64,000 nucleotides of DNA, from IMG/VR virus record IMGVR_UViG_3300025861_000007. The stretch is one strand, 5' to 3'. The position numbers and the translations under genes were made by a program. Positions 10,211-16,048 of the stretch are shown in pieces (within the stretch, counting starts at the first letter, position 1; every line of letters starts with the position of its first letter). Under the pieces are notes generated by a model that saw nothing but the letters and a program-made list of their open reading frames with translations, was not told the DNA's origin and did no database searches. This DNA is from a virus.

Positions 10211-11329
10211 ATGAGTAAAGTATTTTTAGAGTACATTTGGCTTGATGGTAATAAACCTCAAAAACTTCGAAGTAAAACTAAGGTGGTTAATGAGACTGAT
10301 ATCATTAATGCTGAAATTAAAGATTATCCACTATGGAGTTTTGATGGTAGTTCTACTAAACAAGCCGGTGATGAAGAATATGGTTTTAAAGGTACCGATT
10401 GTGTATTAAAACCTGTCTACATTGTTCCTGATCCCTTTAGAGAAAAAGGTCAACACAAATTAGTTTTATGTGAAGTTTACAATCCAGATGGTAAAACACC
10501 TCACAAAACAAACACAAGAAGTAAGTTAACAGAACTACTTAAAGAACTTAAGTTCAAAGAATATGATGCTAATTTAAAAGAAGTTCCTTGGTTTGGGTGG
10601 GAACAAGAATACATCATTACACACCCAGCAAACCAATCATCCCCATTTCAATTCGACGGGGGAATCCCATTAGGCTTTAACGCAAATCAAGAACACCCTA
10701 GACCACAAGGTGATTACTACTGTGGTGTTGGTGGATTAAATGTTATCGGCCGTGAAATAGTTGAGGAACATTTAAAAAAATGTGCTCAAATTGGGTTAAG
10801 TATTGGAGGTATTAATGCAGAAGTTTTAATAGGTCAGTGGGAATACCAAATTGGCCCTGTTACCGCTATTAATGGTTCCGACCAATTATGGATTTCACGT
10901 TATATTCTACAAAGAATTGCTGAAAACTATGGATTTGACATATCTTATCACCCAAAACCTGTTAAAGGTGATTGGAATGGTAGTGGATGTCACGTTAATT
11001 TCTCAACCAAAGAGATGAGAGAAAAAGGTGGACTTAAAAAAATATTAGAAGCGTGTGAAAAACTAGCGGAAAGACATAAAGAACATATCGATGTCTACGG
11101 TGAAGAAAATCATCTACGATTAACTGGTAAACATGAGACTTCTAGTATAGAAAAGTTCAGTTTTGGTAATTCTGATAGGGGTTCTAGTGTGAGAATTCCT
11201 GTACATACTTACACAAATGAAAAGGGTTATTTTGAAGATAGAAGGCCGGCAGCTAACTGTGACCCATATAAAGTTTCATTGGTGATGATTGAAACCGTAT
11301 TCGATAAAGCCGGTATAACAGTACAATAA
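10211..11329 (+). CDS. glnII: Glutamine synthetase type II
   Basis: EYIWLDG, WSFDGSST, WFGWEQEY, GINAEV..GQWEYQIGP, PKPVKGDWNGSGCHVNFST, RLTGKHET, GYFEDRRP; 372 aa. Confidence 0.95.
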   Translation: MSKVFLEYIWLDGNKPQKLRSKTKVVNETDIINAEIKDYPLWSFDGSSTKQAGDEEYGFKGTDCVLKPVYIVPDPFREKGQHKLVLCEVYNPDGKTPHKTNTRSKLTELLKELKFKEYDANLKEVPWFGWEQEYIITHPANQSSPFQFDGGIPLGFNANQEHPRPQGDYYCGVGGLNVIGREIVEEHLKKCAQIGLSIGGINAEVLIGQWEYQIGPVTAINGSDQLWISRYILQRIAENYGFDISYHPKPVKGDWNGSGCHVNFSTKEMREKGGLKKILEACEKLAERHKEHIDVYGEENHLRLTGKHETSSIEKFSFGNSDRGSSVRIPVHTYTNEKGYFEDRRPAANCDPYKVSLVMIETVFDKAGITVQ

Positions 11330-12458: not shown

Positions 12459-12489
12459 CAAAGATATAAACTTATTTCATTTAGGCAAA
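12459..12489 (-). promoter_or_regulatory. Bacteroidota-type primary sigma promoter
   Basis: Minus strand reads TTTG-N19-TATCTTTG (-33/-7 consensus). Confidence 0.8.
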
Positions 12490-12500
12490 AAAAATCTCGT

Positions 12501-13823
12501 TTAAAACGAGATTTCTTCTAACTTACCTTCCACTTCAAAAGGGAATATTGGAATCCACTCCGTTATCTCATTGGCCATAGCTGGTTTACCACCTTCTTTT
12601 CTGTTTATAGCAATAGTGATATGTGGGTCTCTATTTTTAGTTACGAATTGAGTTTCAACTTTAACAGCAACCACCTTATCAGTATAACCAATATGTGTAA
12701 CCAACAAATCAAATGACTGTCCTAATAATGGTCTATATTCTTCCTTAAGAGGCCCCATATTGATTGTCATATGATGAGCTAATAACTCCCATTCACCCTT
12801 TCTTAAGGCCTTTTTTAGGTCTTTATCTGTAATTGCGTTATCAAAAATATAATTCATCATTTCAGTTTTAGTTTTGTTTGTTAAAACAATACCTGAATAA
12901 GCAATTTTTCTTTTTGATTCACTCATTATCTTTTGGAATTTTTCTTTCTCTAACCTATCTTTTTCAATACCAATTTCTTTACCCTTAAATCCTAACTTCA
13001 TTAATTCATCACCAGAAGTGGTAATACGATATCTTAAAAATGAATCAATTAACTTGTTTGGTAATCCCATGAACTGACCAAATGTTTTTAATGTTTCATC
13101 TTTCATTCTAATAGTATCAAACCTTTCACGTAATTTATAATGTGAACCACTTATTGTTTGATAGAATTTTATTAAGAAAGCAATCTCTCTCGCTTCTTCA
13201 GAAGTATACTTAAGATTGTTAACTAATGTTCTTTCAACCAATGTAGGGTCGTTACTTCTCAATAAAGAAGCTATAAGTACGATTGGATCCTTCGTCTCAA
13301 TCAAAGGTTCTGTTGATACAACTAACCTACCAAATATCCAATCCCAAAGGTTGTATTTAGTAATTAATTGAATGAAATAACCTACAGATTGTGATTGTTT
13401 AATACCTTTAATAAATTCATCCCTAATTCTTTCTTGAGATAATGAAAGACCATTCCCACTTACTGGCGTTTTATCTTTCTTTATTGCATTTTGTATATCT
13501 TCATCTAATTCGGAACCTACACGGGCAGCAAATCTAAACGCTCTAAGTATACGTAATTTATCTTCATCGAATCTCTCAGATGCTGAACCAACAGTACGAA
13601 CTACGTTTCTTTCAAGGTCACCAATACCACCAACTAAGTCAACTACTTCACCTTTATCGATATCATAGAAAAGAGCATTGATGGTTAAATCTCTACGTAA
13701 AACGTCTTGGTCTATTGAAGTAAATTCAACAGAATCAGGTCTTCTACCTGAACCAGTAAATTTCATGAATTCACTATACTCTTTAGGTAGTAATTCTTTA
13801 GCTATTTGTTCCCAGTTTTCCAT
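12501..13823 (-). CDS. cca: CCA-adding tRNA nucleotidyltransferase, C-terminal piece, fused to a 2H phosphoesterase
   Basis: GSGRRPDSVEF, RRDLTINALFYD, RFDEDKLRILRAFRFAAR; C-terminal HHMTI...PHITI pair. Confidence 0.85.
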   Translation of the reverse strand: MENWEQIAKELLPKEYSEFMKFTGSGRRPDSVEFTSIDQDVLRRDLTINALFYDIDKGEVVDLVGGIGDLERNVVRTVGSASERFDEDKLRILRAFRFAARVGSELDEDIQNAIKKDKTPVSGNGLSLSQERIRDEFIKGIKQSQSVGYFIQLITKYNLWDWIFGRLVVSTEPLIETKDPIVLIASLLRSNDPTLVERTLVNNLKYTSEEAREIAFLIKFYQTISGSHYKLRERFDTIRMKDETLKTFGQFMGLPNKLIDSFLRYRITTSGDELMKLGFKGKEIGIEKDRLEKEKFQKIMSESKRKIAYSGIVLTNKTKTEMMNYIFDNAITDKDLKKALRKGEWELLAHHMTINMGPLKEEYRPLLGQSFDLLVTHIGYTDKVVAVKVETQFVTKNRDPHITIAINRKEGGKPAMANEITEWIPIFPFEVEGKLEEISF

Positions 13824-14031
13824 TTTTATCTTGTTTAATAATTATATGTGAAGACCATCTATGTGGGAAACTACCAAAAGTGGCTAATTCACACTTTGTA
13901 TCTTCACTATATTCTTCAATAGTTTTATCTATTATATTACGTAATTCAATTAACGAACCCTCAAAGTTAAAAGTTCCATTAATAGTTAAATCACCATCTC
14001 TATTTATATAGGTTGTTTTATTTTCGTTCAT
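13798..14031 (-). CDS. Small hypothetical protein inside the cca insertion
   Basis: MNENKTTY start overlaps the endonuclease stop; 3' end overlaps the cca C-half start. Confidence 0.55.
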   Translation of the reverse strand: MNENKTTYINRDGDLTINGTFNFEGSLIELRNIIDKTIEEYSEDTKCELATFGSFPHRWSSHIIIKQDKNGKLGTNS

Positions 14032-14702
14032 TTTAATTTCCATTTATAACCACCACATTTATTTCTATTACCATTTATTACTGACCAAATATTACCTTGA
14101 CTTAAACCAAGATGTTCGGCAGCGTATTTAGCACTCCTCCACTCTTTTATCACCTTACCTTCTTTATCTAATTGTAAAACTGACTGTGCATTCCAACTCA
14201 CAGTACCCTTTTTACTTTCAGATATTTTTTTCTTTGTTTCTTCACTATGTTTAGATCCCTTATGTCTATTATTACCAATAAGTGATTTACTAATTTTATC
14301 TCTAAATTCTTTAGTCCTCATATGTGACCTATCCATTTTTTTAGAAACCTCAGATATTTTCCTTTTAGCCTCATCACTATGTTTATGACCCATAGAACCT
14401 ACATCACCACCGATTGTTAGATTAGTTAATTTATGTCCGTTATTTTTAAACTCACTAATCCAAAACACCTCACGTTCGTTTAAAATGTATAAATCACATT
14501 CTTCTAAAATTTCTATTTTAACATCGTTTAATAAACCCTTATCTCTTAAACCAATTAACCAGCTATTTTTATGGCTAATACTTTTATCAATATCATTTAA
14601 ATGTCGATATAATCTAACTTTAAGTTTTTGTATAGTTTTACCGATATATCTACATTCATTATTTGTTGGATCTATTAATTTGTAAATGTAACCTTTTTCC
14701 AT
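14028..14702 (-). CDS. GIY-YIG homing endonuclease
   Basis: GYIYKL...RYIGKT, EREVFWI, NUMOD3-like HSDEAKRKISE repeats, C-terminal NUMOD1-like HTH; own ATATTTAT promoter. Confidence 0.9.
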   Translation of the reverse strand: MEKGYIYKLIDPTNNECRYIGKTIQKLKVRLYRHLNDIDKSISHKNSWLIGLRDKGLLNDVKIEILEECDLYILNEREVFWISEFKNNGHKLTNLTIGGDVGSMGHKHSDEAKRKISEVSKKMDRSHMRTKEFRDKISKSLIGNNRHKGSKHSEETKKKISESKKGTVSWNAQSVLQLDKEGKVIKEWRSAKYAAEHLGLSQGNIWSVINGNRNKCGGYKWKLK

Positions 14703-14742
14703 GATATTTTATTTATAAATATCATGATATTTCTGAATGTAG

Positions 14743-15162
14743 TTATTTCATTTTTAGTTTCTCTAAAAATAGTTCATAACTACCGTTATTTAACGTTTTC
14801 AAATACACTAAAAAAGAACTCATACTTTTATCTTTAAAAGATAAATCACGTCTAAAAGTAGCTATTTCATACTGACCATCTTCGGTAACCACGTTAACAA
14901 TAGCAAACTGTTCACCCATATCAATGGTACGATACATACGTAACATAGATTTAACTTTATCTGGTGTTGCATCTGTGGCTAGGTCAAAATCTTTAGGTTG
15001 ATTACCCATTAATAAATCTCTAACAGCTCCACCAACAACGTATAATTCATGACCGTTTTCTTTAAAAATACGATTCATCCTTAATACGGATTCGGGTAAA
15101 TCCATACCTATCTTCTTTCTTACAATTTCCTCTTTCAATAAATTTCTAACCGTGTTCCTCAT
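14743..15162 (-). CDS. cca: CCA-adding tRNA nucleotidyltransferase, N-terminal piece
   Basis: YVVGGAVRDLLMG...KDFDLAT (catalytic DxD), YEIATFRRD, then a non-homologous 33-aa tail. Confidence 0.85.
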   Translation of the reverse strand: MRNTVRNLLKEEIVRKKIGMDLPESVLRMNRIFKENGHELYVVGGAVRDLLMGNQPKDFDLATDATPDKVKSMLRMYRTIDMGEQFAIVNVVTEDGQYEIATFRRDLSFKDKSMSSFLVYLKTLNNGSYELFLEKLKMK

Positions 15163-15211: not shown

Positions 15212-16048
15212 ATGAAAATTTTAAAACCAGGTGAAACAAACGTAAAAGGATTCCTAGTGGAATACGATTCAGGTTTCATATCACCCAATTTAGAATACAA
15301 AGGTAAGAAAAATTTAGATTTAATTAAAGAACATCTAACTCCAATGAGTTTCTTAAATGAATTTAAATCAGGTACCAATATAGGCAAAGATGGTAGTTTA
15401 CCAGATGTTGTTATAGTATATGCTGTATTACAAAAATGGGGTGTTGAAAATAAAAACGGAAGAATATATCCAAAAGAAATTCTCGAGAGAGAAAATAAAA
15501 AATATCAAGAATACATTAAGATGGGAACTTCTCTAGGTGAGTTAAATCACCCAGAGTCTTCAATTATCGATGCTGATAGGGTTTCACATAGAATTACTGA
15601 AACTTGGTGGGAAGGTAAAACCTTAATGGGTAAATTAGAATTAGATACCACACCTGGTTATCATAAACTTGGTGTTATTAGTTCTGTTGGTGACAAAGTT
15701 GTCAACATGATTAGAAAAGGGTGGACTGTTGGTATCTCATCTCGTGGTGTTGGATCCCTTAAACAAGAAGGTGGTAAAAATGTAGTACAAGACGATTTCG
15801 AATTAATCTGTTGGGATATCGTTACATCACCATCGACTCCAGGTTCTTGGATTTCTACTGATGACGGTGATTTAAAACAATTTACAGAATCCTATAGTAG
15901 AGATAATAATTGTAATGGATATACATGTCAATGGAATTTAGTAGAAGGATCATCTTCAATAACAATACCAAGTGATACTATTTTTAACGTACAAGGTACA
16001 AATAGAGATGTTAAATTATTAGACGGGTTAAACAAATTTTTAAAATGA
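15212..16048 (+). CDS. Prohead core protease (T4 gp21-like)
   Basis: NKNGRIYP, LGELNHP, VGISSRGVGS, DFELICWDIVTSPSTPGS. Confidence 0.93.
   Translation: MKILKPGETNVKGFLVEYDSGFISPNLEYKGKKNLDLIKEHLTPMSFLNEFKSGTNIGKDGSLPDVVIVYAVLQKWGVENKNGRIYPKEILERENKKYQEYIKMGTSLGELNHPESSIIDADRVSHRITETWWEGKTLMGKLELDTTPGYHKLGVISSVGDKVVNMIRKGWTVGISSRGVGSLKQEGGKNVVQDDFELICWDIVTSPSTPGSWISTDDGDLKQFTESYSRDNNCNGYTCQWNLVEGSSSITIPSDTIFNVQGTNRDVKLLDGLNKFLK

Follow-up and report, generated by a model that had tools for sequence, protein, structure and literature searches.

The 64,000-nucleotide (nt) IMG/VR virus record IMGVR_UViG_3300025861_000007, referred to as the window, comes from a T4-like phage and contains what is, judged from its sequence, a tRNA nucleotidyltransferase (CCA-adding enzyme, cca) gene in two separately translatable open reading frames (ORFs). 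According to the ORF list, four tightly packed ORFs follow each other on the minus strand, namely the N-terminal part of the enzyme (N-half), an endonuclease gene, an ORF of 77 amino acids (aa), and the C-terminal part of the enzyme (C-half) (Table 1). The small ORF begins with an ATG that overlaps the TGA of the endonuclease gene, and at its other end it overlaps the start of the C-half, whose ATG lies inside it. The original prediction for this locus had described a class II signature broken into an N-half ending in ATFRRD plus a tail of 33 aa and a C-half with a head of 22 aa before TGSGRRPD, as well as a gap filled by a GIY-YIG gene and the 77-aa ORF with about 40 nt of non-coding DNA. All coordinates and counts hold, and the non-coding DNA between the halves is limited to the 40 nt at 14703-14742.

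Table 1. Features of the split cca locus in the order of the minus strand, followed by the mobile block and two further genes of the window.
Feature	Position	Strand	Description	Basis
N-half ORF	14743-15162	(-)	class II tRNA nucleotidyltransferase, 139 aa	ORF
N-half, canonical part	14845..15162	(-)	residues 1-106	PF01743, profile positions 1-80, E 2e-19; phrog_2244
N-half tail	14743..14844	(-)	33 aa, LSFKDKSMSSFLVYLKTLNNGSYELFLEKLKMK, and TAA stop; cassette-supplied	
Hairpin	14700..14726	(-)	perfect, 10 bp; endonuclease ATG in 3' arm	repeat scan
GIY-YIG endonuclease gene	14028..14702	(-)	free-standing, 224 aa; NUMOD3 / I-HmuI-like DNA-binding C-terminus	Pfam, phrog_314
Small cargo ORF	13798..14031	(-)	77 aa from ATG at 14031 (81 aa from 14043)	
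C-half ORF	12501-13823	(-)	440 aa	ORF
C-half head	13758..13823	(-)	ATG and 22-aa head, MENWEQIAKELLPKEYSEFMKF, before TGSGRRPD; cassette-supplied	
C-half, canonical part	12924..13757	(-)	rest of flexible loop (TGSGRRPDSVEF), motif B, motif D, neck, body	PF01743, profile positions 74-126
C-half, C-terminal extension	about 12501..12923	(-)	about 140 aa; outside the split itself	two HxT motifs (HHMTI, PHITI)
Mobile block common to window and L004	13735..14859	(-)	2 differences in 1125 nt	
gp21-type prohead protease gene (PF03420)	15212-16048	divergent to the cca unit		Pfam
Glutamine-synthetase-like gene	10211-11329			Pfam

The Pfam profile of the head domain, PolyA_pol, is divided between the two ORFs, and the motifs of a class II enzyme are complete but shared out. 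Motif A (GGAVRD, residues 44-49, and DFDLAT, residues 58-63) and the BxA motif are located on the N-half, motif B (DQDVLRRD) and motif D (ERFDEDKLRILRAFRF, EDKLR) on the C-half. The EDxxR residues of motif D are reportedly those that template the incoming nucleotide. BxA (R104-R-D106) forms the last canonical residues of the N-half, so that ATFRRD ends at residue 106. In class II enzymes the flexible loop is the stretch between BxA and the DxxRRD of motif B (Hoffmeier et al. 2010, PMC2910056). With BxA at the end of the N-half and DQDVLRRD on the C-half, the cut falls at the N-terminal hinge of this loop, directly after BxA and before DxxRRD, which agrees with the position in the flexible loop that had been predicted. 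The N-half lacks the signature of poly(A) polymerases, [LIV][LIV]G[RK][RK]F, that PMC2910056 gives. Solved CCA enzymes (1miv, 6ibp, 4x4w, and others) align with the C-half only from residue 22-26 on, and no cellular cca has an insert of the tail/head type in the comparison with these structures. A comparison with uninterrupted alleles, which had been proposed as a check, was also carried out. In eight IMG/VR loci of close relatives (L005-L012), cca is one continuous gene reading ATFRKD[IV]GKGRRPDSVEF, and with further uninterrupted alleles among database proteins the overall pattern is ATFRKD[IVL]GKGRRPDSVEF. Since these alleles run straight through, the break and the extra 33 and 22 residues are real.

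The region of the break is mobile. The block common to the window and the related locus L004 begins with 15 nt of upstream exon (the codons for T-F-R-R-D) and ends with about 23 nt of downstream exon; in between are the tail, endonuclease gene, small ORF, and head. Within the block the two loci are about 100% identical, in the exons only 70-83%. The comparison with L003 yields the reverse mosaic, with exons that are 98-100% identical and a cassette that is only 63-87% identical and has no small ORF. Because the shared block takes in the tail, the head, and the flanking codons, the mobile unit comprises the tail, the endonuclease gene, the small ORF where present, and the head. The flanking exon pieces are, by their pattern of identity, co-conversion tracts. 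Thus, both presence or absence at a single site and an identity mosaic around this site were found, as expected for mobility of the homing type. Direct repeats flanking the cassette that would fit a programmed excision were not found. A third type of cassette with another type of tail and head is present in L111, which is syntenic with the window. Here the endonuclease is shortened to 168 aa with deletion of the GIY and YIG motifs, and both cca halves are intact. The shortened ORF (L111:2273-2779) has a TTG start, and its remaining sequence is a recombinant of both types of catalytic domain.

Protein searches revealed many homologues of both halves, with 128-150 aa for the N-half and about 295 aa for the C-half. 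Among the 120 best matches of the N-half, 54 end in a tail of 28-33 aa with the motif D-L-[ED]-x-F-x-x-[YF]-L-K...Y-E-x-F, and more diverged tails of 35-37 aa retain the same pattern. Correspondingly, 69 of the 120 best C-half matches begin with M-x-x-W-E-Q-I-A-K-E-[FL]-[FL]-P-x-E-[FY]-x-x-F. These counts are lower bounds, i.e. at least 54 N-halves and at least 69 C-halves from metagenomes carry such a peptide. When further contigs were opened, all of them (7/7) showed the order N-half, GIY-YIG gene (223-236 aa), small ORF (52-187 aa), and C-half, and the split architecture was found in nine further loci overall. Next to the locus, the opened contigs carry genes of the kind common in large phages (Endonuclease VII, NAPRTase, NadR, dNMP kinase, and tRNA genes). 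A profile scan of genome contigs with the N-half alignment and with generic patterns matched only ordinary bacterial cca/pcnB genes. In L026 (1-3979) and L027 (1-3926), genes for a TonB-dependent receptor, PnuC, and NadR are located directly upstream of the split cca, which is unusual for a phage; these contigs may be phage, prophage, or chimeric.

Tail and head are translated and under purifying selection at the protein level. For tail plus head, the ratio of nonsynonymous to synonymous substitution rates (dN/dS, NG86) was 0.16 for window/L003, 0.16 for L025/L026, and 0.14 for L027/L108, i.e. in three independent pairs, with an excess of synonymous changes (Fisher p about 1e-5 to 3e-5) and values similar to those of the exons (0.03-0.13). 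These ratios exclude non-coding intron RNA and argue against pseudogenes; relaxed, pseudogene-like selection, which would have contradicted the original prediction, was looked for in this way, and purifying selection (0.14-0.16) was found instead. Tail and head also occur in matched types. In 17 pairs, tails of the type SFLxYLK...YELF (FL-type) occur only with heads of the type KELLPxEFxEFMxF, and tails of the type GFKxYLK...YEEF (FK-type) only with KEFFPKEFxxFKR heads. This matching holds in 17/17 cases, including a joint swap in the window's own lineage (P0003/P0126, corresponding to L111), and it fits a co-evolution of contacting surfaces. In P0248 and P0253, head and C-half are preceded in one ORF by unrelated N-terminal domains of 100-170 aa; here, either an upstream cargo ORF was fused to the C-half, or the gene call merges two genes.

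The gene between the halves encodes a protein with the Pfam domains GIY-YIG (PF01541, 32 bits with a cut-off of 22.6), NUMOD3, and I-HmuI_NUMOD-like, with scores of 46 bits for PF07460 and 42.6 bits for PF22083. It matches the family phrog_314 'homing endonuclease' (E 8.5e-26); structure matches to I-TevI (1ln0) and I-HmuI (1u3e) are weak. The endonucleases of the different cassettes have two kinds of catalytic N-terminal domain and one strongly conserved DNA-binding C-terminus, which fits a single target site. Both the activity of the enzyme and this target site are predictions. The hairpin that holds the endonuclease ATG is present in all nine cassettes folded (9/9). In an alignment of eight cassettes, 95% of the cells are paired, compared with 32-60% when the partners are slid, and compensatory changes occur in two pairs. 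The sequence TATAAATA (14710-14717) spans the end of the 5' arm and the loop of the hairpin, and is tentatively assigned as a late promoter; in the window it occurs 22 times with 13.5 occurrences expected, which is a modest enrichment. For I-TevI, segB, and mobE of phage Aeh1, control of the endonuclease start by a hairpin and a late promoter is known (PMC2988022), and by analogy the hairpin and the late-promoter-like element probably restrict translation of the endonuclease here as well. A sigma-70 scan gave fewer promoter-like sites than in shuffled sequence, and a terminator scan gave one terminator-like site, equal to the shuffle expectation. The 77-aa ORF is optional cargo: it is 73% identical to a 65-aa ORF in L025, is absent from L003, and is replaced by unrelated ORFs at the same position in other cassettes. 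No match to it was found in Pfam, PHROG, or the Atlas. In a DNA contig of a subsurface metagenome (run X5), 13817 is joined to 14031 with 14 other letters, i.e. this cassette is without the 77-aa ORF, like that of L003.

A model of the complex of the two halves, another check that had been proposed, was also calculated. It scored 0.73 compared with 0.01 for the best control, a mark that is reached by 51 of 78 solved complexes and by 2 of 108 mismatched pairs. At least 88% of the contacts are the same between runs, and the predicted local distance difference test (pLDDT) value of the partner is at least 82. The modelled interface includes head residues 4, 7-8, 11-12, 15-16, and 19-20 and tail residues 112-136. 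These positions have helical spacing and coincide with conserved hydrophobic positions of both peptides. Tail and head are probably a docking pair that holds the halves together.

Single-chain enzymes in which tail and head are fused were sought with a profile of the head region against 1.8 billion representatives, and two clear cases were found among the 150 best cluster representatives listed, compared with about 70 split forms. P0250, from one read-sized contig, keeps tail and head in frame (...YKLFLKMN-MKNWKNIASEFF...). The methionine of the head stands immediately behind the tail, which suggests that this protein goes back to a split gene that lost its endonuclease gene. The second case, P0387 (475 aa), carries about 70 inserted aa between ATFRKD and GSGRRPD, which form three helices in its AlphaFold model (pLDDT 87.6 overall). 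The contig with P0387 (L113:1-6313) is partly palindromic, with mirrored ORFs of 142 aa and 152 aa and a second, truncated cca copy. The palindrome is probably an assembly artefact, and the 475-aa ORF itself is intact.

As a whole, the locus is best explained by a GIY-YIG homing cassette that fragmented cca and supplies the tail/head pair, with the two halves being translated separately, and we regard this explanation as likely. The cassette would insert directly after BxA, where the flexible loop of the head domain begins, and would bring along what makes the invasion harmless. This would include an in-frame 33-aa tail with a stop codon for the upstream half, the hairpin with the late-promoter-like element, the endonuclease gene, an optional cargo ORF, and an ATG with the 22-aa head for the downstream half. 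The halves would then be translated separately, with neither RNA nor protein being spliced. Tail and head, both amphipathic, would pack as a small helical module at the tip of a beta-hairpin, and this module would hold the halves together, whereby the sheet of the head domain and the active site would be rebuilt. During co-infection, the cassette would home into uninterrupted cca alleles and carry the matched tail and head with it. Of the evolved docking pair in the original prediction, the evolved and selected pair stands, with dN/dS of about 0.15, conserved motifs, matched types, and a modelled interface; the physical docking and the enzymatic activity of the halves are presumed from sequence. 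Nothing in the analysis supports the change of specificity (CC versus CCA) that the original prediction had also suggested.

Several points weigh against this explanation or parts of it. Because the endonuclease is intact in nearly all copies, selection on the halves without an active endonuclease is represented by the single case of L111. The association of tail and head types could come from two clades and not from physical co-evolution. The proposed complex model gave a clear pass, but since the two halves together form a fold whose solved structures are single chains, this pass shows likeness of fold rather than binding, and the tail-head contacts are not among its most confident pairs. 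In the fused form P0387, the insert is modelled only at pLDDT 50-74. Also, according to the study on Aeh1 ribonucleotide reductase (PMC3045599), the tails of that enzyme are needed for higher-order assembly and not for the a/b heterodimer, and the exact role of the cca tails could, by analogy, differ likewise.

The origin of the pair is a separate question. Tail and head could be the two halves of an older helical loop insert in a phage cca, with the endonuclease gene having landed in the middle of the insert and both parts now traveling as co-conversion tracts. Single-chain enzymes with a tail-like and head-like loop insert of 55-70 aa do exist (P0387, P0250), and homing copies everything between the nearest stretches of homology. 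We still rate this origin as rather unlikely, since in P0250 the initiator methionine of the head comes right after the terminal K-M-x of the tail, which looks like a secondary loss of the endonuclease, since the fused forms are rare, and since the solved-enzyme comparison gave no cellular cca with such an insert. Nevertheless, because fused single-chain forms exist, the label 'foreign' that had been given to tail and head needs qualifying: both are part of the mobile cassette, and they could descend from such an older insert. A different view is that the insertion inactivated cca, leaving two ORFs in decay or a C-half that alone, with its 2H-like domain, retains a function; cca is indeed probably dispensable to a phage. 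This is very unlikely, because both halves are whole and have all catalytic motifs in dozens of diverged copies, the exons show dN/dS of 0.08-0.13 between split alleles with co-diverged cassettes (L025/L026, L027/L108), tail and head are themselves under purifying selection, and the halves are intact where the endonuclease is truncated (L111).

Splicing would lead to a single protein by other routes. The locus could be a self-splicing group I intron of 1.1 kb with an endonuclease ORF, in which case tail and head would be intron RNA that is open in frame by chance, and one mRNA and one protein would result. GIY-YIG genes of T4 are often intron-encoded (I-TevI, I-TevII), the roughly 140 nt on the 5' side and 270 nt on the 3' side of the endonuclease gene offer room for a core, and the Rfam model can miss ORF-bearing phage introns. 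We nevertheless consider an intron most improbable, since tail and head evolve as protein, the stop codon of the tail and the ATG of the head are kept in more than 50 homologues, L003 has just 69 nt from the endonuclease stop to the canonical exon, and the fused forms translate tail and head as protein. Moreover, neither RF00028 nor any other Rfam model matches at the locus, be it in the window or in six related loci or records. No group I or group II intron was found in the window at E<=10 and no intron in L003, L025, L027, and L109 at E<=1; RF00028 gave no match at the locus in the records holding L003 and L004 and exceeded its cut-off in two control genomes. This is in line with the genes-in-pieces arrangement without apparent splicing element that had been predicted. 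Two runs labelled as RNA, X20 (probably DNA) and X21, contain single contigs wholly inside the endonuclease gene and off the junctions. Post-translational joining of the halves, by a tiny split intein or some other protein ligation, has a precedent in the phage 'fractured genes', where split-intein halves flank a free-standing endonuclease gene (PMC2677866). For cca it has hardly any probability: a HINT fold is far larger than tail (28-37 aa) and head (about 22 aa), no intein was matched in Pfam, and both the first residue of the tail (L, Q, R, V, I, N) and the residues where head and exon meet vary, without a conserved Cys, Ser, Thr, or Asn. Translational bypass was ruled out, as the gap of 920 nt holds two ORFs.

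Further observations concern the rest of the C-half and the surroundings of the locus. The C-terminal extension weakly resembles a 2H/CPD phosphoesterase by sequence, with a match to PF08302 (tRNA_lig_CPD, the CPD of fungal tRNA ligase) at an E-value of 0.0011, which is below the cut-off. It is found in 5 of the 69 split C-halves and is lacking in the other 64, and in the C-half P0328 another 2H domain, similar to LigT, is present. A hairpin with a U-run behind it (GAAAUCUCG UUUUAAA CGAGAUUUUUUUU) is located at 12485-12519 on the minus strand, across and just past the stop codon of the C-half, and surfaced only via weak matches to MCS4 and the rimP leader. From its sequence it looks like a terminator of the unit of cca-N, endonuclease gene, ORF, and cca-C. 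No tRNA genes were found in the 64-kb window, and a match to PF01743 is absent from the nearest record, G001, which is a 47-kb fragment.

Other variations of phage cca genes were seen during the searches. Some uninterrupted alleles (642-769 aa; L010:3317-5257) have an N-terminal extension of at least about 135 aa before the cca head domain. In L114 (3001-5076), from related large phages, cca is split at a second site, after motif D (...RILRFFRFFSRFN, followed by the stop codon), into an N-part of 192 aa and a C-part of 200 aa with an ORF of 289 aa between them that has weak matches to Vsr, DUF559, and DUF6831; Rfam revealed no intron at this second site. Many proteins of 191-193 aa among the N-half homologues represent the L114 type of split. 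In P0094, an N-terminal cca fragment runs into NUMOD3-like sequence upstream of the usual break, after ...TSETPEGY, and its sequence suggests a third endonuclease insertion site in cca.

Experimental demonstration of split halves held by tails exists so far only for the Aeh1 ribonucleotide reductase, in which NrdA is split by mobE and, according to Crona et al. 2011 (PMC3045599), the tails at the break are essential for activity. On the basis of this single example, the same study raises the idea that insertion-derived tails might generally neutralise gene fragmentation by mobile elements. The cca locus appears to present the same solution in another enzyme and as a large natural family. It adds evolutionary evidence in the form of selection on the tails, their travel with the endonuclease gene, matched types, and persistence where the endonuclease is truncated. 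The cassette may even represent a distinct class of self-neutralising mobile element with a portable, co-evolving heterodimerisation pair ('protein splint'), which invades a catalytic core without splicing, and whose pair diversified into matched types and can remain as a loop insert after loss of the endonuclease; we put this forward tentatively, with chances somewhat short of even. As a corollary, the change from adding C to adding A may be tuned by the bulky two-chain module at the loop hinge, and the locus is a test case for the alteration that the flexible loop of a class II CCA enzyme tolerates. If the pair docks as proposed, nature would already offer a diversified set of short peptides for heterodimerisation. 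The split also explains many calls of 'truncated' tRNA nucleotidyltransferases of about 130-150 aa and about 295 aa in phage metagenomes.

No description of a split cca gene was found in the literature searched, and four known systems come close in different respects. With class II CCA enzymes (Bacillus stearothermophilus, 1miv; human TRNT1, 1ou5/4x4w) the split enzyme shares motif A, BxA, DxxRRD, and EDxxR, and its head, neck, and body align with the solved structures. It differs in that the polypeptide is broken directly after BxA, that a two-chain module of 55 aa takes the place of the N-terminal hinge of the loop, and that a 2H-like domain is appended instead of an HD domain. The intron-encoded enzymes of T4 (I-TevI in td, I-TevII in nrdD; PMC2988022) are alike in the GIY-YIG domain and NUMOD-type modules, in the control of the start codon by a hairpin and a late promoter, and in homing into a conserved enzyme gene; unlike there, no ribozyme core was detected at the cca locus, and the flanks are protein-coding. 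In the 'fractured genes' (2009, PMC2677866), an endonuclease gene likewise separates the two pieces of a phage enzyme gene, and expression signals come with the cassette. Their flanks are N- and C-inteins that ligate the exteins, whereas the peptides flanking the cca break are too short and have no nucleophiles for protein splicing.

The closest system is NrdA-a/mobE/NrdA-b of Aeh1, an analogy that had been drawn in the original prediction and that holds (PMC3045599). There, too, a free-standing endonuclease gene interrupts an enzyme gene of a T4-like phage, and neither an intron nor an intein is involved. Both halves acquire a unique tail where the gene is broken, and an RNA hairpin linked to a late promoter sequesters the start of the endonuclease (PMC2988022). 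We infer that the cca locus is of the same kind, with a portable docking pair common to the family. The differences are that the gene is cca and not nrdA, and that the endonuclease is of the GIY-YIG and not of the HNH type. Of the Aeh1 arrangement one instance has been described, whereas the cca tails form a large conserved family with dozens of variants that is known from sequence alone. In addition, unlike those of Aeh1, the cca tails are carried by their cassette, in matched pairs, from one diverged allele to another, and single chains were found in which they are fused into a loop insert.

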